NCBI GenBank assembly: GCA_041690395.1
Contig: JAWLHJ010000004.1
Span: forward strand, 401,365-465,364
Length of the DNA: 64,000 nucleotides
Direction of reading: 5' to 3'
Source: Longimicrobiales bacterium
GTDB lineage: Bacteria > Gemmatimonadota > Gemmatimonadetes > Longimicrobiales > Gaopeijiaceae
Position numbers and translations under genes: made by a program. The stretch's first letter is position 1; each line of letters opens with the position of its first letter. Shown piece after piece: positions 15,813 through 35,610 of the stretch. Under the pieces are notes generated by a model. The model did no database searches. It was given only the letters and a program-made list of their open reading frames with translations, and had not been told where the DNA came from.

Positions 15813-15930
15813 AGCCAGGCACACTCAGTCGAGATCACCCGAAGTCACGAAAAGCCTTATAACGACTTGCTTGTTGGCGACTCTGCCGCCAACCTTCGTC
15901 GCTTCCAATCACCGGAAATCACTCCGGCCC

Positions 15931-15950
15931 GTGCACGCACCGTGCACGGC
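15931..15950 (+). repeat. Putative integrase arm-type binding sites (paired GTGCAC)
   Basis: GTGCACGCACCGTGCACGGC matches 33434-33453 at 19/20 positions. Confidence 0.7.
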
Positions 15951-15976
15951 AATTCGGCAGACGAAGAGGTGCCCCC

Positions 15977-17302: not shown

Positions 17303-17306
17303 CCGC

Positions 17307-18245
17307 ATGAATCAGCCAAACACTCGCCTTCATCTCCCGAATGCGGATCTGAACCGAGAGGTGCTCGAGGGACGGCAGGCGTTCCTCGCCGCCTTAACGC
17401 GCCTCAGGCCGGATGCCCTTGCAGCGTTGCTGGACGTGTCCGCGCTCCAGCTCAACGACCTCGGCAGGGACGCTCTCCACCTCCTCTCCTGGACGGCGAC
17501 CTCTGACGAGGGGCCTCGCCTCCGGCCCGGGTGGGGCGTCGCAAGCTGGGACCAGCGAAGCATCGATCGCTTGGACACCGAGTACCCGAGCTGGCGCGAC
17601 GTGCGGAGCCGAATAGAGCAGCACATCGGAGGCTGGGGGCAGCGTTTCAACCTCTCTGACCCTTGGCTTGGCGCGGCGGGTTGGGGCACACTGCAATCTT
17701 TCCGTCTCTCGGGTAGCCGTGCCTTCCAGCTTCCGCAGCGTTACCAGGTTGACCGCCTGGAGTATCTCCCCGTGGACCCCGATCAAGCCGGGTACGGGGT
17801 ACTAGGCCACCTGACGACACTGGGCGGTCGGAGCACGGATTCCGGCAGCGATCCGGAGAGACTGTCCATCATGGTATCGCTCGACGAATGGCATCCCCTC
17901 GGGGGAGAAAGCCGGTTTGATGCCCGCGCCCGAATGGTGGGCGCGTTGGAGCAGCTCGTGGACGAGTACCTCGAACGCATCGAGGCTCACGCTCGGGATC
18001 ATGGCGCGAAGCCGATATCCGAGAAGCGTGCACGCCGAACGGGTACTCCGGCCGCTCACTACGAATGGCTGGTCCGCTGGCAGGTGCCGCCCTGCGAGAG
18101 CCTTCGGAGCATCGCCGACCAGCCGGACGGGCAGGGAATAGCCACCCGCTCCCTCGGCGAAAAGACCATTCAGGTGGCGTTGAAGGACACAGCAGCGCGG
18201 ATCGGCCTGACGCGCCGCTCCGGGAGGGCCCGAACCCCCAAATAA
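17307..18245 (+). CDS. Hypothetical protein with possible C-terminal HTH
   Basis: 313-codon ORF right after the integrase; 'ESLRSIAD...EKTIQVAL' segment. Confidence 0.6.
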   Translation: MNQPNTRLHLPNADLNREVLEGRQAFLAALTRLRPDALAALLDVSALQLNDLGRDALHLLSWTATSDEGPRLRPGWGVASWDQRSIDRLDTEYPSWRDVRSRIEQHIGGWGQRFNLSDPWLGAAGWGTLQSFRLSGSRAFQLPQRYQVDRLEYLPVDPDQAGYGVLGHLTTLGGRSTDSGSDPERLSIMVSLDEWHPLGGESRFDARARMVGALEQLVDEYLERIEAHARDHGAKPISEKRARRTGTPAAHYEWLVRWQVPPCESLRSIADQPDGQGIATRSLGEKTIQVALKDTAARIGLTRRSGRARTPK

Positions 18246-18336
18246 GCTCCCGGGACCCTATTTGGGTGTAGCGCATTCGTGATCTCCGCTTCCGTCACTG
18301 AGCAATTCATCGCTCACGTGTGACGGAGAAACAGAC

Positions 18337-18561
18337 ATGGCATCGCAGGATCTCGAAGACCGAACTACCACCCTGAGTCCCGCCGAGGCCGCCCGGCGCC
18401 TCGGCCTCAAAGAGTCCACCCTCAGAAACATGCGCTGGAGGGGTGATGGCCCCCCGTTCGTCCGGGTTGGTCGCCTGTGCCGTTATCGGCTTGTGGACCT
18501 CGATCGCTGGCTAGCGAGCAGGGTGAGGACTTCCACCTCGGATGTCGGCCGCAATGGGTGA
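18337..18561 (+). CDS. Excisionase/AlpA-like HTH protein
   Basis: 'LSPAEAARRLGLKESTLRNMRWRGDGPPFVRVGR..RY...DLDRW'; GGAG RBS. Confidence 0.9.
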   Translation: MASQDLEDRTTTLSPAEAARRLGLKESTLRNMRWRGDGPPFVRVGRLCRYRLVDLDRWLASRVRTSTSDVGRNG

Positions 18562-20443
18562 CCAGGCCGCGCTTGCCACTTCGGGGGCAGGGAGAGGTAG
18601 CGGTGATCGGAAGCTCCGGGATTCACTGGGGCTGGAGCTCGGATTCACCCAAGACTCCCGAACCGGGATCTGGTGGGGGCCCTGTCACGAATGCGGCGAT
18701 CGGCGGGCCTCGGTTAGCACCACCTCGTGGTCGTGTCCACAGTGCGGACCGCGAACGCTCGAGGCAACGGCGGTATTGGCATCATTGGACGAACTGGAGA
18801 GCTGGCCGGAGCGCCCGGACGTCCCCGGTTTCGCCATTCCCGAGCCGTTACCCCTCGATGCACTCCCAACCGTAGCTCGCTCGGCAGTCGCGTCTGTCGC
18901 GGAATCCCTCCAGGTACCGAGCGACCTTCCTGCACTTTTTGCGATCTTATGCGGGGCCGCCGCGATCGGGGACCGTGTAAGCGTGCGTATCCGGTCCACA
19001 CAAGTGGAGCCCTTAGCCCTGTATGGAGTTGGAATCGCCGCACCGGGCGAGCGAAAGAGTCCGGTGTTCGCACGCATGTGCCGGCAACTGTACGACTGGC
19101 AGAAGAGAGCCACGCTGAGGGAGCAGCCACTCCAGCGCGCTGCGCGCGACCGAGTCGATGCCCTCAACACGAGACTGGCTTCACTCAAGAAAGCAGCGGC
19201 AAAGGATCCCGCTGCACTCGACGAGATGGAAGACGCGAGGCGTGAGCTCGACGCCGCGGAGCGGGCTGTTCCTGCCTCCTCTTGGTTGATCGTGGACGAC
19301 GTGACGCCCGAAAAGCTGGCGATGGAGATCGCCGATCAGGGCGGGCGCGCAGCAATCTTCGCTGCTGAGGGGGACGTCCTCCGGATCTTCGCGGGTCGGT
19401 ATGGCAAGGGCGATCCACGTGCGGACCTGTTGAAGAAAGCCATCAATGGTGAGCCCACGCGCGTGTCGCGCGTCGGCAGGGAGACGATCTGGCTTCCGAG
19501 GCCGATCCTAACGGTCGGGCTGATGATCCAACCCTCGGTCCTGGGGTCTCTGGACAATCGAGACAGTCTCGAAGGGGAGGGAGTATTTGCACGGTTCCTC
19601 TTCGTGCAGCCTGAGAGCAACTTGGGATGGCGCCTGACGGGCCGAGAGATCCCGCCTCCGGACCTCGAGGCGGAGAGGAGGTTTGGCCACGCCCTGGAAC
19701 GCCTTCTCGACGTGGCTTCCAGCGAGGTTCTCGAGTCCGGGGAGCGCGTACCCCATATCATCGAACTGTCCGACGATGCGGAGAAGATTCTGTTCGCATG
19801 GGAAAGGGAGATCGAGGGCATGCTCGCCCCCGGCGGCCGGCTTCGATCCATCTCCGGATGGAGTTCAAAGCTGGTCGGGTACACGTGCCGGATCGCGGCC
19901 ATCTTGCAGCTACTGGACCGGGCATCCCGTGGCGAAGCGCTCCCAGGTGGTCATGTCGGGCCGAGTTACGCCGAAGGGGCGGTTCGCATCGCTCGTGCCC
20001 TCACATCTCACGCCATCAGGGTTCTTGGAGAGCTCGCGACATCTCCAGACTCCGCCGATCTGGCATACGTCTGGAGAAAATGCCAAGAATTGAGCCTCCG
20101 CGCTGCACGGAAGCCGCACGACACCCAGAACGACGAAGGTCTAACCCTCACCACACTTCGTCGAGCGATGGGGCGCAAGAGTATCAAGCGCGCAGAAGAC
20201 CTAGCACGCCTTGTTCGCGAACTCGAGCAGCGGAGTTGCTTGAGACTGCTTCCGCAAGGGCCGACTGGCGGCCGGCCAAAGGCAGACCGAATCGTGCTTC
20301 ATCCGATGTTTCGGTGCGGAACCGCAGAAAATGCAGAAAGTCCCTCCGCAGACACTCGCAACACCCTTTCTGCAGTTTCTGCAGTTGTTTCGGAAGGTTG
20401 GCAGAACAAATCTGACCCACTCGATGTCCTGGATGGAGCATAG
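18542..20443 (+). CDS. DUF3987/YfjI-family replication protein with N-terminal Zn finger
   Basis: CHEC..CPQC; Walker A-like 'APGERKS', 'DVTPEKL', 'GLMIQP', 'GVFARFLF'. Confidence 0.82.
   Translation: MSAAMGDQAALATSGAGRGSGDRKLRDSLGLELGFTQDSRTGIWWGPCHECGDRRASVSTTSWSCPQCGPRTLEATAVLASLDELESWPERPDVPGFAIPEPLPLDALPTVARSAVASVAESLQVPSDLPALFAILCGAAAIGDRVSVRIRSTQVEPLALYGVGIAAPGERKSPVFARMCRQLYDWQKRATLREQPLQRAARDRVDALNTRLASLKKAAAKDPAALDEMEDARRELDAAERAVPASSWLIVDDVTPEKLAMEIADQGGRAAIFAAEGDVLRIFAGRYGKGDPRADLLKKAINGEPTRVSRVGRETIWLPRPILTVGLMIQPSVLGSLDNRDSLEGEGVFARFLFVQPESNLGWRLTGREIPPPDLEAERRFGHALERLLDVASSEVLESGERVPHIIELSDDAEKILFAWEREIEGMLAPGGRLRSISGWSSKLVGYTCRIAAILQLLDRASRGEALPGGHVGPSYAEGAVRIARALTSHAIRVLGELATSPDSADLAYVWRKCQELSLRAARKPHDTQNDEGLTLTTLRRAMGRKSIKRAEDLARLVRELEQRSCLRLLPQGPTGGRPKADRIVLHPMFRCGTAENAESPSADTRNTLSAVSAVVSEGWQNKSDPLDVLDGA
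20320..20386. repeat. Inverted iteron pair, candidate replication origin
   Basis: AACCGCAGAAAATGCAGAAAG (20320-40) and CTTTCTGCAGTTTCTGCAGTT (20366-86) are 19/21 complementary; each arm holds two GCAGAAA units. Confidence 0.6.
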
Positions 20444-20444
20444 G

Positions 20445-20726
20445 ATGGGTGCTCGGGACCGACGCCACCGTGGCTCTTTGCTGTGTATTCGCCTCGCTGA
20501 GGATATTTCGCGCGTTGTTCCCGACGGGATCGGCACCTGGGATCATGCTTGGGAGATTGTCGCCGCGGCCGACACGGCCTTCATGCTGGCTCTCCTCGAG
20601 TGGGAGGCGACAGGTCAGGCAGCACTGAAACGACCGCTCCGGGACGCCTATTTCGCAGTGATCGACGCCTGGCGAGAAGCGGCGGGGGCGTACCTAAGCC
20701 GGACTTCCATGTGGGCCAATGACTGA
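20445..20726 (+). CDS. Small hypothetical protein
   Basis: ATG two bases after the DUF3987 stop; stop overlaps the next gene. Confidence 0.55.
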   Translation: MGARDRRHRGSLLCIRLAEDISRVVPDGIGTWDHAWEIVAAADTAFMLALLEWEATGQAALKRPLRDAYFAVIDAWREAAGAYLSRTSMWAND

Positions 20727-21252
20727 CGCCAACAATCGCGACGCCCGAGTAGCCACCAGAGGCTTCGATACATCTAAAGACCCTTATCTGGGCGACGATC
20801 CTATGGATAGCCAACTTCGCCTCGGAACGTTCGCCGACCGAGTGACCTGGTTCCTCGAGTCTCAGGGACGCTGGAGCGGACCACAGCTCGCCGAGCAGTG
20901 TCCGCGCTTGGACATGGCCATCGTGCGTACACTGGGCCCGGGCGTATCGACGCTGTTCTGGTCCGACGGGAGCAAGTCGCGTGTCGTACCCATGCATACC
21001 GGCCTGGACGTCGTGCACAACCCGGCCAACGCCGACTTCTGGATCCCCCGCGCGGTGAGTTTCTCCTTCACCTCCTGCAACTTCGGCGGAGAACGCACGT
21101 GGTTCCTATGTCCGAGGTGTGACCGTCGGAGAGCAGTGCTGTACGCGTATCCAGGATTCCTGTGCCGAACCTGCAACGGACTCACGTACTCATCTACCCA
21201 CCGGCGGCCGCCTTGGAGGCCGGAGCCGGTGTGTCTCGTGCAAACGATTTAG
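20719..21252 (+). CDS. Zn-finger protein typical of integrative elements
   Basis: 'CNFGGERTWFLCPRCDRR..VLY..FLCRTCNGLTYSS'. Confidence 0.7.
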   Translation: MTDANNRDARVATRGFDTSKDPYLGDDPMDSQLRLGTFADRVTWFLESQGRWSGPQLAEQCPRLDMAIVRTLGPGVSTLFWSDGSKSRVVPMHTGLDVVHNPANADFWIPRAVSFSFTSCNFGGERTWFLCPRCDRRRAVLYAYPGFLCRTCNGLTYSSTHRRPPWRPEPVCLVQTI

Positions 21253-21366
21253 GGAATAGTCCGGGACATCCAGTGGAGCCGGTCGCCTCCTGAGAACGCG
21301 CCAGCGAGTGCCTCGGCCCACTACCTGATGCCCCTGTCGCATACACTTTGCTGGACCGCTGGTGGC

Positions 21367-22173
21367 CTACTCTTCGCCATCCGACCGATCGCACCGGGGC
21401 AGCTTATCCTGCAGGACGATATTGACCGAAGCCACGGCGATTACCGCCGCAGCGATGGCTATTCCCGCGACTTCCTCAGGATCGCCATCGATGAAGAGGG
21501 TGAACCCGGTGTCATCGAACTCGAGAGACTTCGTCTCAATCCTGGGAGCGGGATGCGCCTGAAGAGACAGGAGGTTGTAAAGAGACTTGTGGATCAGCAG
21601 GCTCTGCTCGTCCCCACCGGTAGCCTCGGCAAACTCCTCCGGTAATCTCGTCCGGGACTTGCCGCTCCAGTGAAACTGTCGCCCCTTCTTCTTCGTGCGA
21701 TCGTGCAAGACGGCCTCGAGTGCCTCACTCATTACCTGCGTCTTCTCAGGCACGAATCGGCTCCAGACCTCTGAGTCTTCATCCGCTAAGACAGCGGCGG
21801 ATTTCTGCTCAACGTCCTCTTGATCGACCGCCGCTTGGTTGGCCAACTGCGCCCCGTACTCCCAGTCCAACAGTTCTCCAGCCCGCGCCCGTGCCCCAAA
21901 ATGGTCGTAGTCTGCGTTGCGGGTGCCCAAGAACATCACCTCCTGAGCCGCCTCAAATGCCGACCGTGCCGCTGCGTGCGCGGTACGGGGGACCTGAGAG
22001 TCCCAGAGCAGCCTTACGGCCTTGGCGTGCTGGAACACGTCGCGAGCGAGACCAAGGAGGGCGAGGTCGGGAATCAAGTGGGCTCCGCGCACGCCAGTCG
22101 TGAGGATCGTGTCATGAAGCGACCCTAAGGCCTCGTCCAGGTCCTCGACTGAGCCCTTCACACACACCTCCAT
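21367..22173 (-). CDS. DUF5677-like (HEPN-related) protein
   Basis: 'ARSAFEA' and 'LYNLLSLQAHP' motifs; GAGG RBS. Confidence 0.65.
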   Translation of the reverse strand: MEVCVKGSVEDLDEALGSLHDTILTTGVRGAHLIPDLALLGLARDVFQHAKAVRLLWDSQVPRTAHAAARSAFEAAQEVMFLGTRNADYDHFGARARAGELLDWEYGAQLANQAAVDQEDVEQKSAAVLADEDSEVWSRFVPEKTQVMSEALEAVLHDRTKKKGRQFHWSGKSRTRLPEEFAEATGGDEQSLLIHKSLYNLLSLQAHPAPRIETKSLEFDDTGFTLFIDGDPEEVAGIAIAAAVIAVASVNIVLQDKLPRCDRSDGEE

Positions 22174-22192
22174 GCCTCACAGGAAATCGATG

Positions 22193-22282
22193 GCGACTTC
22201 GAGTTGCTGCTGCAGCGTGCCCGGTGACAGCCAAAGCATAGCGATCCGGTAGAGCGCGACGGCACCAGTCCCTTGTTTGGAC
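22193..22282 (-). repeat. Decayed attC-like element C
   Basis: Starts 3 bp after the HD-nuclease stop; shares CTGCTGCA, CCGGTG, AGC(G/A)TAGCG and CGCGAC.GCA.CA blocks with 24155-24248 and 26139-26235. Confidence 0.55.
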
Positions 22283-22285
22283 GGG

Positions 22286-24118
22286 TCACGTTCCCTGCCG
22301 CGGCAGCGTAACGGTCGCATAGGCGCCCTTCGTACCCAGGTGCGAGACCTCGAAGTCTTGGTCAGGGATAGTCAGTCGTCGGAACTGACTCCTGATCTGG
22401 GCCTCGGCTTCAGTGTTTCCGCTCTGGGTGTTCTTTGCCTCCACGATCATCAGCACCGGTTGCGATACATCACGAGAGAGTAGGATCGCCAGCCCATCAA
22501 ACTCGGCGACGATCTGCCCGCTCTGTATGACCTCGGTAGATCCCGCAAAGGCGACGATCGCCCCGCGGTAGTCGATCGCCCGCAACGCGGCCTCCAATTG
22601 CACGACCTCATTCAACTGGTCGGCTCCCAAAAGCCCGGACCCCTTCGCCCAGTCCCGATACGTCCCAATCACCTCGGCAGCGCGGGTAGACCCATAGACT
22701 CTGACTACCGGTGACGTCTCAACCGCAGGCAGAGTACGGAGTCGGAAGCGCCTTTGCTCACCAAGGACCTGTGGGAGCAGGAACCTCAACAACGCAAGGC
22801 CGTTTCGCGTCGCACTCGCTGCGGACAGCTGAACGTCGAGCTCTGCAATTCGCGTCTCGAAGTCGAGCAGCTGCTTCCCCACCCTCAGTGCGGCCTTCTG
22901 GCGAACCGAGGTTGACGACGTGCGGGCTAATGCAGCTGTGACCTTCAGGTGTCGATGTCGAGGATCAAAGTCGGCTGCGAATCGACACGACCGGAGGCCG
23001 ACCGCTTGTCGGGCACCGCGCTCCCAGCCCAGGGGGTCCGGCAGAAGCGACGTAGCGAGCGCCGGGTCGAGATCATATGCCAGTTGGACAATCGGGCCGG
23101 TCGGTGTCCCATGCTCGTCCGGAGGACTCGGTGCGGTAAAATGGGTCGAAGCGTCGCGATCAGGGCCCATCAAGTCCCAGAGAGCCCCGATTGTAGCCGG
23201 CTCGGGATCAAGCGCCTCAAGTCGATCGAGGATCTCGTCACCAACCCGAGCATGATTGATGAGTTGGGGCGCCGCCATGTAAACCGTATCTCGCATGACA
23301 CCCTCTAGACGCTCAAGAGCCTCTTGGAACGCAGAGCCCTCAACGAATACATCGGTCAGATAGTGCTCCAAGGAGAAAAAGATCGATGCGAGATCCAGCG
23401 AAAAGGGTACAGGAGCGTAGTGCGAGTCCAGAGCCAAGTAGGTGAGTCGCCTCAGGCTCCGATACAGATTCCATAGCGCGACCAAGCTCTGATCCGTTTC
23501 GCCAGACTGCAGAGTGGTGAACGACCGCAGTATCGCCTGGCAGAAGTCCGCTATCGACGCGCCACCCTGCCTACGCCTGTACCGATCCAGAAGAAACGAG
23601 GCGATCAGGTAGTTGAATTGATAGAGGTTGTTGGTTCTCAACGCGCGATCGAAACGCTCACGATCCGCTTCGGGCAGCCCGGACCGGAATGCGGCCGCCG
23701 AGCGCCGATGGTCGCGGAGATACTTCATGAGAGCGCGCTCGCCGGAGAACGTGCTCGGCAGGTGTCCGATGTTCCCCAGCATCGCAAAGACCATAAGGAT
23801 CTCGCCGTTCGTCGGGTCCTGACCAAGGCCGTCGATTGTACCGAAGGTGTTCCGCCGGCGTCCCAGACTCAGTCCTGCAGGAAGCTGGCCCCGTAGATGG
23901 CACAACTCGGTGATGATGGCCAGCTGCGCCATCAGGTACTCATACCGAGTGTGGTGCGCTCCGGGGAGCACCTGCCGAATGGGTCCGAGTTGATCGATCC
24001 CCTTTAGAGCGCGGACGTGCTCGTATTGCTCCAAGAAGTCGAACACAGTCTTCGCGTACGGGAACAGTCGCACCCGGACGAGGCCGAAGCCCGGCAGGTT
24101 ATAGCGCCAGTATTCCAC
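22286..24118 (-). CDS. Degenerate HD (dNTP triphosphohydrolase-like) domain fused to C-terminal PD-(D/E)xK nuclease
   Basis: 'LKGIDQLG..PGAHHTRYEY', 'MLGNIGHLP', 'RRLTYLALDS', 'MRDTVY'; C-terminal 'EFDGL...IVEAKN'; GTG 24118 is the preferred start (ORF open to 24289). Confidence 0.7.
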   Translation of the reverse strand: MEYWRYNLPGFGLVRVRLFPYAKTVFDFLEQYEHVRALKGIDQLGPIRQVLPGAHHTRYEYLMAQLAIITELCHLRGQLPAGLSLGRRRNTFGTIDGLGQDPTNGEILMVFAMLGNIGHLPSTFSGERALMKYLRDHRRSAAAFRSGLPEADRERFDRALRTNNLYQFNYLIASFLLDRYRRRQGGASIADFCQAILRSFTTLQSGETDQSLVALWNLYRSLRRLTYLALDSHYAPVPFSLDLASIFFSLEHYLTDVFVEGSAFQEALERLEGVMRDTVYMAAPQLINHARVGDEILDRLEALDPEPATIGALWDLMGPDRDASTHFTAPSPPDEHGTPTGPIVQLAYDLDPALATSLLPDPLGWERGARQAVGLRSCRFAADFDPRHRHLKVTAALARTSSTSVRQKAALRVGKQLLDFETRIAELDVQLSAASATRNGLALLRFLLPQVLGEQRRFRLRTLPAVETSPVVRVYGSTRAAEVIGTYRDWAKGSGLLGADQLNEVVQLEAALRAIDYRGAIVAFAGSTEVIQSGQIVAEFDGLAILLSRDVSQPVLMIVEAKNTQSGNTEAEAQIRSQFRRLTIPDQDFEVSHLGTKGAYATVTLPRQGT

Positions 24119-24154
24119 CGTTGCCAACCACCACGACTTGAAGGAGCGTGAGCC

Positions 24155-24248
24155 GTCTAACGTCAGGGGATTCTGCTGCGCCGCCTGTCCGGACACCAGC
24201 GTAGCGTAGCTATCCGTTCTTCCGTGATAGCAGCAATCCATTAGAACG
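24155..24248 (-). repeat. Decayed attC-like element B
   Basis: - strand ends in GTTAGAC (GTTRRRY core); imperfect IR GGATT[CT]GCTGC / GCAGCAATCC; homologous to 26139-26235. Confidence 0.7.
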
Positions 24249-24360
24249 CAACGATGGCACATCGGACCGAAGGGGCTGGCGGGTGCCACCGAACACTAGC
24301 CGACCATGGCAGGGACCGGACCGCTCGGGCCAAAAGTCACAAGAGATCTCGCTGCAGAAC

Positions 24361-25173
24361 TCAGTAGTCCATCTTCAGGTACCGCGTTCCTGTGAACCGA
24401 TCGATGTACGGACCGCTCCTCACGGAGTTCATCAGGTCCCAGTAGCACACCTTCGCATACTCGTTCTCGAGTTCGGGTGGGTACGTGAAGCTGTATCGAG
24501 GATCGTTCACTGACGGGGGCGGCACGTAGGCGCGGTAGAACTCGGGGGCCAGATACTCATGAATGGCCCACCGCACCTCCGTCAACATTTCGGCAAGCGA
24601 GGTGCTGTGGTAGGAGAGAATATCGACGTGAAACCGTTCGTAGAAGTCATCGAGCGCGCGTAGTGAGTCGATGAGCGAGGCGGAGACACCACTTGCCTCA
24701 AGTAGCTTTCGCAACCTCTTGGCGTTCCGTGTTAACCGAGCTGGATTGTGCTTGGAGAGATTGCCACAAATCGCCACGAAGTCGCGGCGACGCAGCGATA
24801 GCGGAACCTCCTCATCGAGGCTTGGAAACCAAGCCTTGACCGTGATCTCGGTGTCGAGCCAAGCAGTGAGATTGGCGACACTGGCGGCGAGCACCTCGCG
24901 AGCTTCGTCTCCGGGTAGCTGCGGATCCGAGGACACGGTTCCCAGTGCATCGAGCAGAGATCCGCGAATACCGACGAGGTCCCGGTCCACCTGCTCAAGC
25001 ATGTCCGCCAACAGCACGCAAAAAAGTGAGCGACGAGTCGGTGATTTGAACGTCGCCTGCGTGATCTCGGGCTCGCCCCCGAAATTGAGCATCTCGTGAT
25101 TCACCATCGAGTTGATCACCTCAATGGTCAATCGCAGCACCACAGCCTCGCGTTCGATCTTTGTGGTGCTCAA
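24361..25173 (-). CDS. Hypothetical protein (possible HEPN-like)
   Basis: 270-aa helical ORF; 'ICGNLSKH' motif; GAGG upstream of TTG start. Confidence 0.65.
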   Translation of the reverse strand: MSTTKIEREAVVLRLTIEVINSMVNHEMLNFGGEPEITQATFKSPTRRSLFCVLLADMLEQVDRDLVGIRGSLLDALGTVSSDPQLPGDEAREVLAASVANLTAWLDTEITVKAWFPSLDEEVPLSLRRRDFVAICGNLSKHNPARLTRNAKRLRKLLEASGVSASLIDSLRALDDFYERFHVDILSYHSTSLAEMLTEVRWAIHEYLAPEFYRAYVPPPSVNDPRYSFTYPPELENEYAKVCYWDLMNSVRSGPYIDRFTGTRYLKMDY

Positions 25174-25256
25174 TCTGCGGCCTCTGATTCGTATGGAGTT
25201 CTTGCCGTAGCGTGTATCAGGTAACCACGAGCCCGACGCTTTTAACAGGCTCGCTC

Positions 25257-26000
25257 CTATTCGGCCAGTGACTCCATCTCGTCGGCCAGCCTGTTCAAGA
25301 ACGCATCGACTTGGTCGAAGTAGTCGCCAAGGTCCAGAGGAGACACGAACAGGTCCTCGCCGGACAGCGGCGCGTGCACCGCGGTCTTGATCTTCCCGAG
25401 CGGGGACGACGGGTCATTCTTCAGCGCGTCCGGTAAGAAGAGATCGGGCCGCACTTTCCACAGCGACTCTGTCGCGGCACCGTCCGCATGCTTGGTGGCG
25501 TTCGCTACGTGCCGAAGTTCTTCGATTTTGGACCACTCAGGGAAGTCCTTCAAGTCCAGCCCCTGTGCTCCAAACGCCTTCACAATGTTGCTCCCCCTCA
25601 GCAGCGCATGGTCATTCTCGTGCTCCTTTGGAAGTAGTTCCTTCCGCAACAAGAATAGGAGCTTCTGTTCAAGCAGATGATGCAGGGCAACGGCGAACAG
25701 ATTGAGCACGGCTTGCCGGGCGCTCCGCCGCAGGTCGTAGTAGAGGATGCTCTCGTCTCGTGCTGCCTCGTAGTAATCGGCTGGATCGTCATCCGGGTGG
25801 AAGTGCCTCCCGAGTCGTTCCAGTGCCTCCTCGCCCGCGCGCTCTGCCTCATCGTCGATGTTGTCGAACGATGGAAGGGCACGGTCGAGCACAGTCTCAC
25901 GAAGAACGACCACCTCGGGTATGACGATCCTACGGAGATAGTTGGCCCAAAAGGGACCGTTTGCCTTCAGCCCAAGTCCACGGACCTTCGGAAGCGCCAC
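25257..26000 (-). CDS. HEPN-like protein
   Basis: 'LHHLLEQKL' and 'WSKIEELRHVANATKHADG' motifs. Confidence 0.65.
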   Translation of the reverse strand: MALPKVRGLGLKANGPFWANYLRRIVIPEVVVLRETVLDRALPSFDNIDDEAERAGEEALERLGRHFHPDDDPADYYEAARDESILYYDLRRSARQAVLNLFAVALHHLLEQKLLFLLRKELLPKEHENDHALLRGSNIVKAFGAQGLDLKDFPEWSKIEELRHVANATKHADGAATESLWKVRPDLFLPDALKNDPSSPLGKIKTAVHAPLSGEDLFVSPLDLGDYFDQVDAFLNRLADEMESLAE

Positions 26001-26138
26001 TTTCTCACCTTACGGTTGAGTTGGGGGTCGAGTCGCTGACCCAAGTAGATCAACGTTTCCGTAGTACAGGACACGATGCCGCATTCCGACGAATCCACGA
26101 CTTACGAGCGGATACCTGTAGAATCTGCCCGCGTTGCG

Positions 26139-26235
26139 CTCTAACGTCTCGGAATTCTGCTGCACGGCCCTCCGGTGCACCAGCGTAGCGTTGCCTACCC
26201 AATCTTCCGCGACTGCAGCAATTCCCTGGAAACGA
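26139..26235 (-). repeat. Decayed attC-like element A
   Basis: Begins about 14 bp after the PIN gene stop; - strand ends in GTTAGAG; IR GGAATT[CT]GCTGCA / TGCAGCAATTCC. Confidence 0.7.
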
Positions 26236-26248
26236 TCTGCCCGCACGG

Positions 26249-27259
26249 TCAAATAGGTCCCAGCATGCTGCGCGTCGTTGAGACGAGATCTATGAATCTG
26301 AGTTCGCCATCGGAAAGCTCTAGGGACCGGGTCCGCCACAGGCGGCGAATGATCCTCTCGGTCAGCCTGCCTGGTGCCATCCGAAACTGGCAATATCCAT
26401 TGATCTGCCCCGCGCCCCGAGAGTTGTTGAACGGGTAAATCCGCGCGCCTGGAGGGACCGGACCGACAGCTACGTTGCGACCTCGGGTCTCACCGTTGAT
26501 GAAGATGAAGATCCCGTCGGCATCGACCGCCACGGCGACAAAGTTTGAGGATTGCCACTCAACCGCCTGAGGGAGGGTGAGCATACCAACGGGTACCGAT
26601 TCCTGGAACCACCGGAAGACGAAGGCTGCCTGGGCGGGCTCGTAGAACAGCTCAGCCTTGCCGGTCAGGTCCATCACGTAGGGGATCTCCCCTGAGTCGC
26701 GGATCGCTTCACTCGACCAGTTGGGCCAAAACTGACCGAGAAACGTCCACGCGAAGGGGTTTCCGCCGTCCAGGAGCCGCGGATCGTTGGGGTTCCAGAG
26801 GAAGCTGGAAGGACTCTTCACCTTGATGCCGGGTACCTCCTTACGGAAGAACTCCCAGTCGTGCGTCAGGAGGAAGTTGACCTTCCCCGCTAGTGAGTCA
26901 GCCAGCACCTGTTGGTCCTCGCCGGAGAGTCTCGCGGCCCAGGGCGGGAGACATGACCGGTCGCCATCGGCGACACGCTCGACCGTCGTGTGCTGGGCGA
27001 GCTGTAATAGACCATCCGCGAAGTCGCCCACAAGGTTGGGGGCGTTGGTACGCAGGACCCGTAGCGCCATATCCTCGACGTGCCGGCCGAGCACGACCGT
27101 CCCCTGATCCAGGGAGGCGAGGCACTGGTTGCTATACGAGCCGAGATCCAACAAGCCGGCCAGGAGAACGCTAACGTCAGGAGCGATTCTGGACTGCCGG
27201 ACCGTCGGGTGCACGGCTTCTACGATCTCCCTTGGTACCGAATCGAACCGATCAGCCAC
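26249..27259 (-). CDS. PIN-domain RNase fused to a LamG/ConA-like beta-sandwich
   Basis: 'PDVSVLLAGLL', 'EDQQVLADSLAGKVNFLLTHD' (PIN acidic residues); C-terminal 'FVAVAVD..GIFIFING'. Confidence 0.6.
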   Translation of the reverse strand: MADRFDSVPREIVEAVHPTVRQSRIAPDVSVLLAGLLDLGSYSNQCLASLDQGTVVLGRHVEDMALRVLRTNAPNLVGDFADGLLQLAQHTTVERVADGDRSCLPPWAARLSGEDQQVLADSLAGKVNFLLTHDWEFFRKEVPGIKVKSPSSFLWNPNDPRLLDGGNPFAWTFLGQFWPNWSSEAIRDSGEIPYVMDLTGKAELFYEPAQAAFVFRWFQESVPVGMLTLPQAVEWQSSNFVAVAVDADGIFIFINGETRGRNVAVGPVPPGARIYPFNNSRGAGQINGYCQFRMAPGRLTERIIRRLWRTRSLELSDGELRFIDLVSTTRSMLGPI

Positions 27260-27647
27260 AATACTCCGGGGTTTCGATCTAACAAGGGATCCTGCAGGTC
27301 TGCGTATCGCCGTTCTGCTGAGCGCCTTTTGGCGGGGCTCCCGGAACGTGGCACCAAGAGTTAATGACTGGAGGTGGACGTTCTCCCAAGAGTAGTTCCG
27401 TGGGTCTAGTCTCGACAGGATCTGCGACTCCTCCGCTTCCCAAGGATCACTTCCCTACCCAGCATCGGGCCCGTGGCAGCCCCACCACCTGCTAACCCAG
27501 CAGGGGTTCCGCCACGGCTAAGCCCTTACCTCTTATTGTCATAGAGCACCCCAGTGGCATGCGCGTGCACAAACCGTGCACCCAGGATGGCGCTGGGCGG
27601 CTGGAACCGCGCTCGCGGTTCGCTTTCCCGAACGCGGGAGATAGCTC

Positions 27648-29309
27648 TCAACGAGTGGCCACATGGTGCACGATCGAGTCGGCCAATCGCTCCGAAATGT
27701 CCTGTAGATCCCGAAAGCGTTCCTCAAGCTCGTCGCAGAGCGCCATGAGCTCGGTTACCCTTCCAACGATGCGGCGCTGTTCATCGAGGGGCGGCAAGGG
27801 AATCGGGCAGGCTCCGAAATAATCGCGCGGCACCCGTTGCTGTCCCGCAGTGCCCGTCATTCGTGGCACACCCGCCTCGATAAAGGTCGCAGACTTCAGG
27901 AACACGAGGGCGTAACTCGGCTCAAGAACACCCTGGAACGGTCGAAGAACATGTAGCTCGGTGGTGCCCGCGCCTATTCCGTTCGGCAACCCTGAAACGA
28001 CAACGGATTTTCGGTTCTGGAAGCACGGGGTGATCTTGGCCAACGCGATATCCCCGTCGGCCAGATGCGTGTAGCCCTTCTTGATCTCCTTCCAAAGGCG
28101 TAGCTCCGCCGTGTGCCCGGGTACGAAACCGTCATCGATTGCGGCCATGGGGACGAAGCCGGCCTCCGTTTCATCCGCCACCTCGTTTCTTGGGCCGACG
28201 ATCCCGAGATCCTGCAGTTCCACCCAGCGCCATGTCTCGGGCACCTCGAAGGTCGGGGGTGGATCAGGGATCCTGCATCGGCGTGGCTTCCGCCCCGAGT
28301 ACGTCTTGAGCGCCTGCGCTGCTCGCACCAAGAGCTCGGCGGCAGACTCCTCGCCCGCCCGCTGCTCCACCAGCCTGCCTCTCACTGCCAGATCGAGGAT
28401 GGTCCGCCTGAGGTCGTCTACGCTCTCGGGCGTAGTGAACAGCGACTCCCAGTTGTCACGCATCCGGACCCACTCGCCGTCAGCTAGGAGGGCCTCGAGC
28501 GAGGATACACGGGCCTGGTCGCGAACAGTAGCCGTCACCGCCTCGACTCGGGTGAGCTCTTCTAGAATGGCTTGGAGCCCACCAACCGTCCGGACGATTT
28601 CGTGCTGTACCTCGAGCGGTGGTAGAGGCAGCAAGATCAGAACCATCCGGGTAAGGCCGAGATCCCGGTTTCCGGTACCGTGTGTGTACTCCTGCGCTTG
28701 TTCATAGCAGAAGGGGCTGTTCAGTGCTAAAGCCAGATACTCGGGGGCTACCAATTCCAGATCAGTCCGAAGCACAGCAACGTGGACCCAGACAGAGAAA
28801 TCCATGGATAGGTCGTTGACCACCGCGACCCCCGTCGTCCCCCCTTTGGTGTACAAGATGTCGCCTGGGCGCGGGCGGATGCGCTTACAAAACGACTCGT
28901 GGTCCTCGCGAGAAACATACTTGGTGTTCGTCAGGTCGATGCGCCCCGAGCTGAGCTCGCCAGCCGAAAGCATAGGGACGGCCTCTGGATGCGGGCCGGG
29001 AACCCAGTTCGGCGAGAAGTGGGGCCCGTCCGCGACCTCGTAGCACGCCTCACCAAGGCGAATCCATTTCCAGCCGGATGGGAGGTCGAACGGAAGATCA
29101 CCGGGAAGATCGGGCAGAGCTTTCTTACGTCGGAGTTCCTTGGCTTTGATCTTTCCCTGTCTCCGCCGACGCATTTCCTCGACGATCTCCTCAGCGGACG
29201 ATGTATAGGGCACGGAGCCACCGATGCCCCCTGATATCGCGAGCATACTCGCCAAGTCCCGGAGAGAATCGATCGCCAAGAAGTCGAGAGCGGGTCCGAT
29301 GACCATCAC
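27648..29309 (-). CDS. hsdS: Type I restriction-modification specificity subunit
   Basis: Two TRDs, 'PFDLPSGWKW', 'PLPPLEVQHEIV', 'LRRTILDLAVRGRLVEQ', 'PLPPLDEQRRIV'. Confidence 0.93.
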   Translation of the reverse strand: MMVIGPALDFLAIDSLRDLASMLAISGGIGGSVPYTSSAEEIVEEMRRRRQGKIKAKELRRKKALPDLPGDLPFDLPSGWKWIRLGEACYEVADGPHFSPNWVPGPHPEAVPMLSAGELSSGRIDLTNTKYVSREDHESFCKRIRPRPGDILYTKGGTTGVAVVNDLSMDFSVWVHVAVLRTDLELVAPEYLALALNSPFCYEQAQEYTHGTGNRDLGLTRMVLILLPLPPLEVQHEIVRTVGGLQAILEELTRVEAVTATVRDQARVSSLEALLADGEWVRMRDNWESLFTTPESVDDLRRTILDLAVRGRLVEQRAGEESAAELLVRAAQALKTYSGRKPRRCRIPDPPPTFEVPETWRWVELQDLGIVGPRNEVADETEAGFVPMAAIDDGFVPGHTAELRLWKEIKKGYTHLADGDIALAKITPCFQNRKSVVVSGLPNGIGAGTTELHVLRPFQGVLEPSYALVFLKSATFIEAGVPRMTGTAGQQRVPRDYFGACPIPLPPLDEQRRIVGRVTELMALCDELEERFRDLQDISERLADSIVHHVATR

Positions 29310-30769
29310 GATTCCATGGCTTCTTCCAACACGGTCCGGACCGTGGCGCGAAGTCGGTCTATTTCCAAGCGGACGGCCGCAAGATCTCTGAGCAACTCAT
29401 CGGGATCATCGTGGGATACCGAGCCAGCATCCGGATGGCTGATGTCGAGGTTATAGCCACGCTCCACCACCTCTCCAATCGGTACCAACCACGCCCGCTC
29501 TCCGCTCTGCCGCGCCTCCCACCATGCTTTCTCTGAATCAAATTCCTCGATCCGTATAGGCTTAGTCTTTGAATAGGACTTGTAGCCCTCAGGGTAGGGA
29601 TGCTCGTAGTACCAGATCTCCTTCGTCGGCTCCCCCTTGGTGAAGAAAAGGATATTCGTGCGGGTGGGCGTATACGGCTGAAAGACCCCCTTAGGCAACC
29701 GGACAATCGTGTGGAGGTTGCAGTCCCTAAGCAGCTTCTCCTTGATCCTCGTCTTGATGCCCTCGCCGAAGAGCGTTCCGTCGGGCAGGACAATCGCGGC
29801 CCGTCCCCCGTCCTTCAGCAGTTCCATCACCAGCACCAAGAAGAGATCGGCGGTCTCGCGAGTCCGAAACTCTGATGGGAAGTTGTTCTCGATCCCGTCC
29901 TCCTCCATGCCACCGAATGGTGGATTCGTTACAATGACATCGACCTGGTCCTTAGGTCCATAGTCCCGGAGCGGCTTTGTCAGTGTGTTTCCGTGGCGAA
30001 TGTGAGAGGGTATGGCGATCCCGTGCACCATCATGTTTGTAACGCAAAGCAGGTGCGGGAGCCCCTTTTTCTCAATTCCCCGCACGCTTCGCTCTAGAAG
30101 CGCCTGCTCGTCGGTCGTCTCCACCTGCCTCTTCATGTGTTCGTAAGCACAGGTTAGGAAGCCGCCGGTTCCGCAGGCGGGATCAAGAACAACCTCCCCT
30201 AGCTGCGGGTTCACCAAGTCCACCGCGAATTGGGTCACCGCGCGCGGCGTGTAGAACTCCCCGGCGTTCCCAGCCCCTTGGAGATCCGTGAGAATCTGCT
30301 CGTAGATCTCCCCAAACAGGTGGCGGGTCTTCGCCTGATTGAAGTCGATATCCGACTGCAGCCGATCGATTACCTGGCGCATCAGGGTGCCCGACTTCAT
30401 GTAATTGTGGGCATCCTCGAAGACGCTCCGAATTATCGCGGCCCGGTCGTGCTCTTCACCCTCAAACCCCGCCAAGTCGAGTCCTTTGAGCGTCGGGAAG
30501 AGCTCTCCATCCACGAAGGCCAGAAGCGCGTCACCGGTGAGCGAGTCCTTTCCCAGGCGTTCGGAGTCCGCCCAGGAGTGCCAGCGGAGCCCCTCCGGGA
30601 CTGGAGACCGATACCCATCCCGGGTCAACTCCAACTCCTCCTCGAGATCGCTGAAGATCTTCAGAAACAACATCCATCCGAGTTGCTCGATGCGCTGGGC
30701 ATCACCCGCCACACCCGCGTCCTTCCGCATGATCTTCTGCATGGACTTGATCGTTCTTGAAAGCGACAT
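29306..30769 (-). CDS. hsdM: Type I R-M N6-adenine methyltransferase
   Basis: 'GEFYTPR', 'DPACGTGGFL', 'NPPFGG'. Confidence 0.97.
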   Translation of the reverse strand: MSLSRTIKSMQKIMRKDAGVAGDAQRIEQLGWMLFLKIFSDLEEELELTRDGYRSPVPEGLRWHSWADSERLGKDSLTGDALLAFVDGELFPTLKGLDLAGFEGEEHDRAAIIRSVFEDAHNYMKSGTLMRQVIDRLQSDIDFNQAKTRHLFGEIYEQILTDLQGAGNAGEFYTPRAVTQFAVDLVNPQLGEVVLDPACGTGGFLTCAYEHMKRQVETTDEQALLERSVRGIEKKGLPHLLCVTNMMVHGIAIPSHIRHGNTLTKPLRDYGPKDQVDVIVTNPPFGGMEEDGIENNFPSEFRTRETADLFLVLVMELLKDGGRAAIVLPDGTLFGEGIKTRIKEKLLRDCNLHTIVRLPKGVFQPYTPTRTNILFFTKGEPTKEIWYYEHPYPEGYKSYSKTKPIRIEEFDSEKAWWEARQSGERAWLVPIGEVVERGYNLDISHPDAGSVSHDDPDELLRDLAAVRLEIDRLRATVRTVLEEAMES

Positions 30770-33112
30770 CTAGGCTACTTCGTCCGAGTAGAGTTCCGAT
30801 TCAAGCTCGTGAATCGCATCGAGGTACTTCTGCTTGCCGCCAAAGGCCCTTACCAACTCGATCGGCGTCCCGAGATCCGAGATCGGTCGGAGTTGGAGTA
30901 CGGCGAACTCCTCGATCTGCTCGACCCCTTGGTCGGCATACCGCTCGAGCAGGGCATCCAGTACGGCGCGGGCGGTCCCTTCGTACTTCGTAAACACGTC
31001 TCGCCTCTTCACCGCCTCGGCCCGCTCCTTGCGAGTGAGGGCAGGACGGTCGTACGCGACGTGGCAGATGAGATCAAACGGGTCGTAGTCGGGACCCACC
31101 ATATCCGCCAGGGCTTCCAGTAGAACGCCCTGCTCTCTGAGTTCAGCGATGACCGCCTGCTTCCGATCCGCTGTCTTCCAAGAGGTCAAGAAGGCGTCAA
31201 GGGAAGTGAATTGCTCCCCGACCGTGCGGCGTGTGTAGTCCTTCAGCGACTCGGTGACGAGCTTGCCGTCCTTGTCGTAGTACTGGACGCGCTCGGCGAC
31301 GATGCCGAAGCGCTGCCCGCCGACGACATACCGTAACCGAGGCTCGGGATCCACCGGATCGACGATGACAGGATCCTCTTCGTCGTCTGGGGGCTTGATG
31401 GGCTTGTCATCGCCTGGCTGGTAGACCTGAAGCGGCGGCCCGTCCCAATCGGGATCAGCGAAGAGCTCCGTCGCTTTCCGGAAATCGATGATCGTGAAGA
31501 ACTGCTTGCCGTAGTCCTCACGGATTCGGGTGCCCCGCCCCACGATCTGCTTGAACTCCGTCATCGACCCGATGCGACGGTCCAGGACAATTACGTGACA
31601 GGTCTGCGCGTCCACCCCGGTGGTCATCAGCTTCGAGGTCGTGGCGATGACGGGGTAAGGCTCCTTCGGGTTGATAAAATGATCGAGCTGGGCCTTCCCC
31701 TCCTTCTCATCCCCCGTGATCCGCATGACATACCGGTGGTCGGCGGTCACCAGCGGCTTGTTCTCGGAGACGTTCACGAGCGCTTCCCGCATCCGCTCAG
31801 CGTGGTTGATGTCCTCACAGAAGACGATGGTCTTGTGCATAGGGTCGGTGCTGTGGAGGAACTCGGAGACACGCTCCGCCACACGCTTCGTTCGCTCCGG
31901 GAAGACGATGGACCTGTCGAAGTCCATTTGGTTGTAGATGCGGTCCTCGATCACCTCACCCTTGTCGTCTACCTGCCCCGCCGTCGGTCTCCAACCCTGG
32001 AGATCTACGTCCAGATCCACGCGGATGACCTTGAAGGGAGCCAGGAACCCGTCCTCGATGCCTTCTTTCAATGAGTACGTGTAGATCGGCTCACCGAAGT
32101 AGTGGATGTTCGAGACGTACTGCGTCTCCTTGGGCGTGGCAGTCAGCCCAAGCTGCGTAGCATCCGAGAAGTACTCCAGTATGTGCCGCCACTCCGAGTC
32201 TTCCCTGGCGCTTCCCCGGTGGCACTCGTCAACGACGATGAGATCGAAGAAGTCCGGGTCGAACTTGTCGTAGATCGGCTCGCGCCCCTCTCCGCCCACA
32301 ATGGCCTGATACAGAGAAAGGTAGATTTCGTAAGCGGTTTCGACCTTGCCGGTATTTGCGTCCACGAGCGAGCGATCCAACTTCACCATCGCCCCGCCGA
32401 AGGGCTGGAAATCATTCGTGACGGCCTGATCGACGAGGATGTTGCGGTCAGCCAGGAACAGGATGCGCTTGGCTTGTTCCTGCTTCCAGAGGCGGTGGAT
32501 GATTTGGAACGCGGTGAACGTCTTCCCGGTCCCGGTCGCCATCACCAGAAGACATCGCTTCTGCCCCTTGCTGATCGCCTCGACCGTGCGATTGATGGCG
32601 ATCTGCTGATAGTACCGGGGCGTCTTCCATCCTAGGGCCGTGTAGTTCGGTCCGGTCACCGCCGGCTCGTGCTCCGGTCGAATCCCCCTCCACTCCTTGT
32701 ACCGAGCCCACAACTCGTCGGGCGCCGGGAACGCGTCGAGTTCGAGGGTCCGCTCCACATCACCAGGAAGCCCCGTCCGATCGTGGAGGAGAAACCCCAT
32801 TCCGTTGGATGAGATCGCGAACGGAGTATCGAGCTTTTGGGCATAATCGAGCGCCTGCTGCATCCCGTCGCCCAATGAGTGTTTGTGGTCTTTGGCTTCG
32901 ACCACTGCGATGGGAAGATTCGGCTTGTAGAACAGGACATAGTCGGCCCGACGAGGCTTCTTCCGCGTGGCTATGTTCCCGCGAACCACGATCTGTCCGT
33001 CCGTGATCTGGTACTCGCGGCGGACGAGGACCTTGTCCCACCCCGCCGAATGAATGGCAGGAGTGATGAACTGATCGCAGACGTCGGCTTCCGACAGCGG
33101 CTTGGTGCTCAT
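30770..33112 (-). CDS. hsdR: Type I restriction endonuclease subunit (EcoAI/EcoEI-like)
   Basis: 'ADYVL..VVEAK', 'MATGTGKT', 'DECHRG', 'TATP', 'QIVGRGTR', EcoEI-type C-terminus. Confidence 0.97.
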   Translation of the reverse strand: MSTKPLSEADVCDQFITPAIHSAGWDKVLVRREYQITDGQIVVRGNIATRKKPRRADYVLFYKPNLPIAVVEAKDHKHSLGDGMQQALDYAQKLDTPFAISSNGMGFLLHDRTGLPGDVERTLELDAFPAPDELWARYKEWRGIRPEHEPAVTGPNYTALGWKTPRYYQQIAINRTVEAISKGQKRCLLVMATGTGKTFTAFQIIHRLWKQEQAKRILFLADRNILVDQAVTNDFQPFGGAMVKLDRSLVDANTGKVETAYEIYLSLYQAIVGGEGREPIYDKFDPDFFDLIVVDECHRGSAREDSEWRHILEYFSDATQLGLTATPKETQYVSNIHYFGEPIYTYSLKEGIEDGFLAPFKVIRVDLDVDLQGWRPTAGQVDDKGEVIEDRIYNQMDFDRSIVFPERTKRVAERVSEFLHSTDPMHKTIVFCEDINHAERMREALVNVSENKPLVTADHRYVMRITGDEKEGKAQLDHFINPKEPYPVIATTSKLMTTGVDAQTCHVIVLDRRIGSMTEFKQIVGRGTRIREDYGKQFFTIIDFRKATELFADPDWDGPPLQVYQPGDDKPIKPPDDEEDPVIVDPVDPEPRLRYVVGGQRFGIVAERVQYYDKDGKLVTESLKDYTRRTVGEQFTSLDAFLTSWKTADRKQAVIAELREQGVLLEALADMVGPDYDPFDLICHVAYDRPALTRKERAEAVKRRDVFTKYEGTARAVLDALLERYADQGVEQIEEFAVLQLRPISDLGTPIELVRAFGGKQKYLDAIHELESELYSDEVA

Positions 33113-33433
33113 TGGCCACCGACCTCGGGAGCGATCACCGATGCGGTCCGAGCCAGCGGGGAGAGATCATGCGGGCGCGGAGAGCAGACGAGCAAACAGG
33201 AGAAGTGCGCCGATGGCGGGGGCGAGAGGATCGCGGGCGCAGGTGGAACCTCCTTAGCGTGTGCCTCGGGACAGTGGGATTGGTGGATGCAGGGATAAGC
33301 GCGGGGGCATCGACCCGCAACCTACTCGGATCCTACGACAGTGCATCCCGAGCCGAGACTGCTTGAATGGGGGCGGTGGTCTCGACGGCGACGCCGCGTC
33401 CAACCCCCACCGGCAGGAGATTAGCAGCCGCTT

Positions 33434-33453
33434 GTGCACGCCCCGTGCACGGC
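33434..33453 (+). repeat. Putative integrase arm-type binding sites (paired GTGCAC)
   Basis: GTGCACGCCCCGTGCACGGC, about 70 bp inside the tRNA-side att core. Confidence 0.7.
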
Positions 33454-33520
33454 TTTTCCGACGGCGCACCTGGGCCGGACCAACCGCCTTCTAAGATGCT
33501 ACCCTGAAAGTACTTAAGAG

Positions 33521-33595
33521 TGGGCGCTGAGGGACTCGAACCCCCGACCCCCTGCTTGTAAGGCAGGTGCTCTAACCAAGCTGAGCTAAGCGCCC
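33521..33595 (-). tRNA. tRNA-Val(TAC)
   Basis: GGGCGCTTAGCTCAGCTTGGTTAGAGCACCTGCC-TTACAA-GCAGGGGGTCGGGGGTTCGAGTCCCTCAGCGCCCA folds as a cloverleaf; CCA is not encoded. Confidence 0.97.
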
Positions 33596-34004
33596 GACGT
33601 ACCGCCAATCTGGCCCCACGCTCCGGAGAACAGCAGGGCGGTTCCCGGCTCGCGTCCGAACGAAGGGAACCGCCCCGTGTCAGTCTCCGACCATGTCGGC
33701 CGACGGGTAGCAATGTGATCGCCTGCTCGACCCCGGTCAACCAACGGGAGCGTGCGTCACGGGACGTCGGAAGCCACGAACGGGGGGCCCACATCTCCTG
33801 GCGGAACGGAAGAGTCTATGGGGCCTTCCGGAGCTAGCCGAGCTGGGCGGCGACCGGTGGACCCGGTCATCGGGAGAGCAGTCACGCGCCTCTTCGCCGT
33901 GAGAAAAGTATCGCAGAGGGGGGGACTTGCTGCCAGGCCCTCCGGGCGCGGTAGCGTACGTCGTCGAAATTGCCGGATCCGAACCGACGATGGAGCGAAG
34001 ACCC

Positions 34005-35519: not shown

Positions 35520-35610
35520 GCTAGCGTCAGTCTCCAGCGGGAGCGTGCGTCATGGGACGCCGGAAGTCACATTCCGGGAGCAAGGGTTCGGGCCGACAGG
35601 AGGCGCTACA

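Follow-up and report, generated by a model that had tools for sequence, protein, structure and literature searches.

Probable remnants of an integron cassette array in a tRNA-Val island of a Longimicrobiales bacterium

attC clusters devoid of an integron integrase (CALINs) are defined by two or more attC sites without a nearby intI (PMC4889954). Integrons have already been recorded in Gemmatimonadota (PMC8618304); neither this phylum nor the site family treated here is among the 11 taxon models of PMC8352920. Integron cassettes have also been reported as anti-phage (Darracq et al., bioRxiv 10.1101/2024.07.02.601686). Here, we describe repeats that lie between single genes in a 64,000-nt stretch of DNA, referred to as the window, from a Longimicrobiales bacterium (Gemmatimonadota; GenBank assembly GCA_041690395.1). 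The source genome (G000; 4.33 Mb, 98% complete) carries the window at C4:401365-465364; window coordinates are used unless a contig prefix (C1, C2, C5, C6, C7) is given, and G and L numbers are labels of genomes and loci.

A sequence-only reading had proposed that the repeats are attC-like elements of a captured, decaying cassette array, and our analysis bears this out. With a probability of about 90%, they represent decayed attC sites from an integron family found mainly in Gemmatimonadota and mark a short array, likely assembled by a canonical integron integrase (IntI), that now sits next to a type I restriction system within a tRNA-Val island and is predicted to be immobile. The cluster, which lies in an island of the defence type, is a small and decayed CALIN, an element of a kind already known: at least two attC sites are found on the same strand within 4 kb (spacing about 2.0 kb, detected with family-specific models and not those of IntegronFinder), and no intI is located nearby.

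The repeats and their site family

The array comprises five genes and three sites:

21367-22173, minus strand: DUF5677 gene, which closes the array; no attC was detected behind it
22193-22282, minus strand: attC copy 3, heavily decayed; AAC retained, GTT core gone
22286-24121, minus strand: 611-aa gene, predicted SAMHD1/deoxynucleotide triphosphatase (dNTPase)-like HD fold and PD-(D/E)xK-type nuclease domain
24155-24246, minus strand: attC copy 1; GTTAGAC intact, gene-proximal R box damaged (AAC gone, about 3 nt deleted); extrahelical bases 24234 and 24227
24361-25173, minus strand: 270-aa gene of a widespread family without a name
25257-26000, minus strand: 247-aa gene, likely of HEPN fold, no attC detected after it
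26139-26234, minus strand: attC copy 2; L stem and GTTAGAG preserved, R box on the gene-proximal side destroyed; extrahelical bases 26219 and 26212
26249-27259, minus strand: 336-aa gene, PIN and LamG-like
27277-27283, minus strand: GTTAGAT, unproven candidate for the crossover point of the first cassette (z 2.6)

Over 84 nt, the elements at 24155 and 26139 share 80% identity (E 1.6e-11 in a search of the whole genome); on the minus strand, they end in GTTAGAC and GTTAGAG, respectively. Both contain an inverted repeat with two unpaired bases, which are single bases positioned 6 bp apart in the gene-proximal arm. A covariance model of the site family, which was built from other genomes only, detects 26139-26234 with 54.2 bits (E 1.3e-13) and 24155-24246 with 40.9 bits (E 1.4e-9). 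The more diverged third copy, 22193-22282, is at chance level with this model (8.1 bits, E 9.9). It is nevertheless the best non-seed match genome-wide for a hidden Markov model (HMM) built without that copy (E 0.014). An HMM of 18 foreign sites detects it as well, with an E value of 1e-4 for the window and 0.007 for the genome, and of 585 background windows from the island, none attained its score (z 8.0). Judged from these scores, it is a true homologue, badly decayed. Two of the three elements start just past a stop codon (22282 is located 3 bp past the TGA at 22286-88 and 26234 is located 14 bp past the TGA at 26249-51); the distance is 114 bp for the element 24155-24246. The two homologous elements, the more diverged third copy, the GTTAGAC and GTTAGAG ends, the two unpaired bases and the position of two of the three elements just past a stop codon had been described in the sequence-only reading and were found as quoted.

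This was only partly the case for the GTTAGAT at 27277-27283. The motif is present 18 bp before the PIN gene; its score is not shown to exceed chance, as four of the 585 background windows score equally high (z 2.6) and the HMM gives E 3.9. Covariance-model and HMM scans detected no whole attC upstream of 27277. The position was also considered as an attI-like junction and rejected, its context being unlike that of the attI-like junctions behind six IntI genes, as read by eye. No site was found between the 247-aa and 270-aa genes (25174-25256; z 0.0 and model scans) or past the DUF5677 gene (z 0.3 and model scans). A generic attC pattern scan of the genome returned mostly noise and missed the window sites.

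Three additional copies are present in the genome (C1:984237, C6:32315 and C6 near 32800), which results in six in total. None of the three window copies and none of the six genomic copies keeps both AAC and GTT, and none of the six forms the full family hairpin in the minimum-energy bottom-strand fold. Since AAC or GTT is lost in every copy, the sites are predicted to be unable to recombine, and those of the window to be poor or dead substrates. Among sequencing runs, no RNA run containing the sequence was listed, and in the one low-coverage DNA run that does, the joints at the repeats were not interpretable as excision. An apparent enrichment of damage in the core triplets (7/24 versus 12/128 other conserved positions, p 0.014; p 0.047 for all six copies) is not trusted, because one deletion was counted several times and the sites had been found via their inner part. 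The two C6 copies form a second small cluster (C6:31543-33741; L009:11544-13742), in which they follow an AbiJ/Abi_C gene. Type IIG restriction-modification and GmrSD/HEC-05 genes are its neighbours in a low-GC region that also contains sites of a second family described below, and a tRNA-Arg and an integrase are located about 22 kb beyond it.

With an HMM of four of the genome's own copies, five sites (E 5e-11 to 7e-8) were detected in G015, where they lie downstream of IntI; G015 is one of seven genomes among 41 in which IntI exceeds the TIGR02249 cut-off. The repeat motif was found in 149 stretches of named genomes, 76 loci of which were analysed; by title, 69 of these belong to Gemmatimonadota, Gemmatimonadales or Longimicrobiales; another six are labelled with other phyla, and the last has a Candidatus name. 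A pattern for the gene-proximal arm only retrieved 84 distinct arms, and 68 of the 83 tallied have a GTT core 8-9 nt past the best-matching complementary arm. The covariance model comprises 66 foreign sites, i.e., 62 of 65 that passed the filter (three near-duplicates were dropped) and four from G022 and G030, and matches 74 of 150 genomes of the bacterial family. In the 66-site alignment, 89% of cells pair compared to 28-42% in slid controls, a value that is partly circular since the sites had been filtered for complementarity. Less affected are the compensatory changes, which occur at five stem pairs (67 cells changed on both sides versus 33.6 +/- 8.1 in shuffles). On the coding strand, intact members of the family have an R box that ends in AAC; after 5 nt come a stem of 3 nt, an unpaired G, 6 paired nt and an unpaired T or A, and then a variable centre, the complementary arm, 8-9 nt and GTT. 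The sites show the attC architecture R''-spacer-L''...L'-spacer-R' downstream of a co-oriented gene, in addition to their homology.

The sequence-only reading would have been contradicted by a repeat that never accompanies intI or cassettes or whose bottom strand folds unlike attC, and the data did not contradict it. IntI is located upstream of the family and co-oriented with it in G015, G022 and G030 and in three of the 76 motif loci with 4-kb flanks (L067, L080, L101). When the bottom strand of 18 intact foreign sites was folded, 13 had a paired R box in the minimum-energy structure. In G015 (L025:18630-19999, L026:1-11000), four of the five attC sites are broken at the same position with an IS110-family transposase gene behind each, and the region between intI and the array holds an IS91-like integrase/transposase pair. 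The IS110-family insertions recall members of IS1111, which have been reported to target attC (PMC11187229). A related attC family of the AAC-AATCG-GCT-G type is present in G227 (L274, L277, L282), where its arrays contain homologues of two window genes.

The island and its cargo genes

The array is part of a 17.7-kb island with a GC content of 58-66%, compared to about 69% in the host. The island carries an integrase and is bounded by an intact tRNA-Val gene and a perfect copy of the 3' part of this tRNA, which together with the lower GC content are the features of a tRNA-anchored integrative island. The tyrosine integrase, HTH_17 and DUF3987 genes are encoded on the plus strand, and the type I restriction system followed by the five array genes on the minus strand; as had been noted from the sequence alone, every gene between 21367 and 33112 points the same way. 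Outside the array, the island contains:

15767-15812, minus strand: island end, formed by a 46-bp direct repeat of the 3' part of tRNA-Val, 100% identical to 33521-33566
15977-17302, plus strand: island tyrosine integrase with arm-binding domain (PF00589, PF13356), not an integron integrase
18337-20443, plus strand: HTH_17 (excisionase-like) and DUF3987 genes, island backbone
27648-33112, minus strand: type I restriction-modification genes hsdR, hsdM and hsdS, upstream of the array
33520-33595, minus strand: intact tRNA-Val(TAC), island attachment site

Three islands with 63-65% identical integrases (G022, G324, G115) contain no window-family sites in the stretches fetched, so the array is no fixed feature of this island type. 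Just outside the left island repeat, a MarR-like helix-turn-helix gene and a DUF6036 nucleotidyltransferase gene (14308-15776; 62-64% GC) possibly represent an older insertion or a toxin-antitoxin pair. Beyond the tRNA, a 48-nt direct repeat (33741-33788 and 35534-35581, 81% identical) brackets a flavin adenine dinucleotide (FAD) monooxygenase gene, and the region 42233-43096 has a GC content of 79% with tandem repeats of 8 nt and 18 nt and a duplicated 85-nt block. Elsewhere in the genome, 17 tRNA genes are clustered within 3.3 kb (C1:919395-922679).

The 611-aa gene starts 33 bp past the core of one site and stops 3 bp ahead of the next. A longer reading of 667 aa, which starts at 24289 and runs through the attC site, was rejected since the homologues (mostly 600-645 aa) start at the 24121 position. 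The predicted structure of the 611-aa protein (predicted local distance difference test (pLDDT) 89.6) matches 2hek with Z 18.2 (root-mean-square deviation 4.3, 304 aligned residues) and SAMHD1 with Z 15.6. In the alignment, the first metal-binding histidine is replaced by tyrosine; the remaining metal ligands also look replaced. The C-terminal part contains the invariant residues E505, D542, E561 and K563, which form an E/D/ExK motif, and shows weak fold matches to the nucleases Can1 and Card1 (Z 5.0-5.7). The neighbours of 611-aa homologues at L180, L194 and L188 are type I restriction-modification genes, a tRNA or genes that, by eye, resemble TIR/SIR2. No homologue was detected in 250 other genomes of an order-level sample. 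The protein is a candidate for an undescribed defence protein.

In the 247-aa family, residues E161, N167, K170 and H171 are invariant and form an E..N..KH motif. HEPN proteins top the fold list of this protein with Z 7-8, a borderline value within the chance range for helical bundles; Pfam HEPN models matched none of 16 family members, and a Foldseek search with the 247-aa model found nothing. The 336-aa family has PIN_3 matches in 9 and Laminin_G_3 matches in 7 of 12 members, and the window protein itself is matched by neither. For the 270-aa protein, 407 representatives were found at E<=0.001, the search for a family name found none, and the protein atlas contained nothing usable. Using order-level samples, homologues were detected in 2 of 400 genomes for the 247-aa gene and in 4 of 300 for the 270-aa gene; none was found in 400 other genomes for the PIN gene or in 300 other genomes for the DUF5677 gene. 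PADLOC returned nothing above noise for the five array genes, the one match being of 14.7 bits to DUF5677 only. The proposal of the sequence-only reading that each gene may be an independent defence or toxin module is backed by predicted folds and neighbours and not by PADLOC, and a defence role of the cargo genes may be inferred from these folds and neighbours. Further anti-phage integron cassettes are reportedly described in another bioRxiv preprint of 2024.

Homologues of two genes occur as cassettes elsewhere: in G227, a 247-aa homologue (contig C237) and a distant 270-aa homologue (contig C15) are each flanked by attC sites. In G180, an attC-like stretch that is not scored by the family model follows the 247-aa homologue. 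Several observations weigh against a cassette array. There are only three sites for five genes, and the arrangement of one gene per unit, which had been proposed from the sequence, holds for two units only. For the 270-aa gene, five loci with homologues were read, and in four of them no attC is found directly beside the gene. The homologues of the 611-aa gene are not cassettes: none of 29 loci matches the family model, and none of 14 has a generic attC downstream. The window copies do not fold significantly better than shuffles (z -1.7 to +1.4, unconstrained folding). Textbook sites also differ from the family in the identity of the extrahelical bases, which on its bottom strand are C and then A or T, and in the length of the spacer, here 8-9 nt.

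Part of these data would be explained if the attC remnants were hitchhikers and some of the cargo, above all the 611-aa gene, had never been cassettes but had joined an already decayed array through ordinary recombination. Behind two of the genes, no attC is present, and 611-aa homologues are located beside type I restriction-modification genes or tRNAs without attC. However, the cassette-like placement of the 611-aa gene between two sites argues against this scenario, and the homologue loci that were read are only 22-55% identical, the 77-79% identical homologues not being among them. We consider it unlikely.

According to the preferred reading, the array was likely built by an IntI that excised cassettes and stacked them, using the bottom strand in its folded form, either in an earlier host or in an ancestor of the genus. 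Entry into the island may have occurred by insertion at a secondary site, as in the attG route (10.1101/2022.09.11.507474), or by rearrangement (PMC4889954). After the loss of IntI, the sites would have drifted while the genes stayed open. The genes are probably anti-phage cargo, which would now move only with the island; they are likely locked in place, since no matching integrase was found in the genome.

Integrases, a second site family and the genus

The claim that the array lacks intI is correct for canonical IntI. No match in the genome reaches the TIGR02249 cut-off, the island contains no significant IntI fragment (best E 0.006 over 45 aa), and neither intI nor a recognisable attI was found beside the array, which is hence no complete integron. 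The genome does, however, encode an IntI-like recombinase (C2:762959-764299), which is 33-39% identical to IntI and lacks the IntI-specific (I2) insert; it scores 213 bits against TIGR02249 (cut-off 265), with model positions 176-230 unmatched. This short recombinase is followed by 13 co-oriented attC-like sites of 155-162 bp (C2:762959-775842; L285:12960-20000, L286), and 36 sites of the same second family are found at the end of C1 (C1:983751-1018088; L271). The recombinase heads at least 13 and probably about 49 sites, and both groups are possibly parts of a single array across an assembly gap. The second-family sites have a first stem of 8 bp without an unpaired base, followed by a G-T pair. 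Scattered sites are also present at C5:381123-386958 (around two tRNA-Lys calls), C7:108773 and C1:93196.

The array of the window might be a satellite of this system, served in trans by the I2-less recombinase in the past or at present. In line with this, the enzyme heads the 13 sites on C2 with 36 more on C1, and one window-family copy, that on C1, is located between far second-family sites of this contig, on the same strand. Furthermore, two of three window-family sites of G006 and the sole site of G002 keep both triplets, and both genomes carry a short enzyme. However, the window contains no second-family site (best E 1.4), and ten stretches fetched around short enzymes contain no window-family site. 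All six window-family copies of the genome are broken, yet 37 of its second-family sites keep both triplets. In addition, the I2 helix, which the short enzyme lacks, has been reported to dock extrahelical bases (PMC7790495), and this would fit a pairing of enzyme type with site type. We regard such service in trans as quite improbable. A REP-like (repetitive extragenic palindrome) element or a regulatory RNA is very improbable: the copies are scattered over three genomic places, but an Rfam scan of 15000-35000 returned tRNA matches and two chance-level ones only, no promoter-like or terminator-like sites were found within the repeats, and the fixed orientation after stops, the arrays behind IntI and the invariant AAC/GTT pairing fit neither.

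The preferred reading of an array stacked by canonical IntI is complemented by a genome of the same genus. G005 encodes a canonical IntI and 44 window-family sites, with no short enzyme and no match to the second family; its IntI ends 34 bp from a contig end, and no site is located on that contig. Both triplets are kept in 22 of the 25 best-scoring of the 44 sites and in five of the eight fetched sites that score 53-61 bits. Most of the G005 sites that were read are of the window's subtype, which suggests that an IntI of the same genus could have been the stacking enzyme. G001, G002, G004 and G006 carry the short enzyme (73-94%) and have 0, 1, 1 and 3 window-family sites, respectively. This pattern is suggestive only, since the assemblies of G001 and G006 are fragmented, with a completeness of 89% and 75%, and since G002, G004 and G006 together have five relic sites of which three are intact.

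We therefore propose only tentatively that the array is the fossil of an integrase swap, which we hold to be possible rather than probable. According to this idea, the genus once ran canonical IntI together with extrahelical-base attC sites, as G005 still does. The canonical enzyme would then have been replaced by the I2-less recombinase, which would drive the large array of sites without an extrahelical base in the first 8-bp stem. The old cassettes would have been stranded, have lost their triplets and have become fixed as defence genes, including an undescribed SAMHD1-like/nuclease system. In this protein, a catalytically dead SAMHD1-like domain might sense nucleotides and thereby switch on the fused nuclease.

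Comparison with known systems

The element itself is an ordinary CALIN, and its site family is common in the lineage (74/150 genomes); it is of value as a pointer. The array draws attention to five single genes, all uncharacterised, that are candidates for phage-defence modules and include the SAMHD1-fold/nuclease fusion. Furthermore, one genus offers a natural pair, canonical IntI with extrahelical-base sites versus a short integrase with another site family, which renders the weight of the I2 helix and of the extrahelical bases in cassette shuffling testable, as well as the fate of cassettes whose enzyme is lost. The interest of the locus rests mainly on this two-system contrast and on the SAMHD1-fold nuclease gene. 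Literature searches, with subscription papers and bioRxiv supplements outside their scope, found no description of Gemmatimonadota attC sites, of an integron-like recombinase without the extra domain or of a defence fusion of an inactive HD domain with a nuclease.

Like the CALINs described in 2016 (PMC4889954), the locus is a small array of co-oriented attC sites within 4 kb, with no intI nearby and cassettes of unknown function. It differs from them in that every site is broken in a core triplet, in its location in a tRNA-anchored island and in the lack of a canonical IntI in the assembly. With the sedentary integrons whose IntI is co-oriented ("inverted"; PMC8352920) it shares the sites downstream of a co-oriented intI, which are seen in the six loci of relatives, whereas the window locus has neither intI nor a recognisable attI.

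Canonical attC sites, as reported by Bouvier et al. in 2009 (PMC2727003) and Nivina et al. in 2016 (PMC5027507), have the RYYYAAC/GTTRRRY cores, the 5-nt first spacer and the variable central part in common with the family described here, and also two extrahelical bases on the R''-L'' arm, whose position and 6-bp spacing match the published rules (PMC5027507). The first extrahelical base of the bottom strand is usually G in canonical sites and C in the window family; in the Vibrio cholerae repeat (VCR), a G-to-C change was reported to cost 2.7-fold only (PMC2727003). The second base is usually T in canonical sites and A or T here. The second spacer of canonical sites usually measures 5-6 nt, whereas the L'-R' distance is 8-9 nt with three extra pairs in the window family; attC spacers of up to 10 nt have been described (PMC7370490). 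A further contrast to canonical sites is that in most intact members of the window family the bottom strand is not the more stable one.

Integrons with anti-phage cassettes resemble the array in having single-gene cassettes with predicted nuclease folds, and on C6 a sister site follows an AbiJ/Abi_C gene; here, by contrast, the five array genes have no PADLOC match above noise. The 611-aa protein matches the fold of SAMHD1/dGTPase-type HD hydrolases over about 300-370 residues (Z 15.6-18.2) and differs from them by the tyrosine at the position of the first metal-binding histidine and by its added C-terminal nuclease-like domain.

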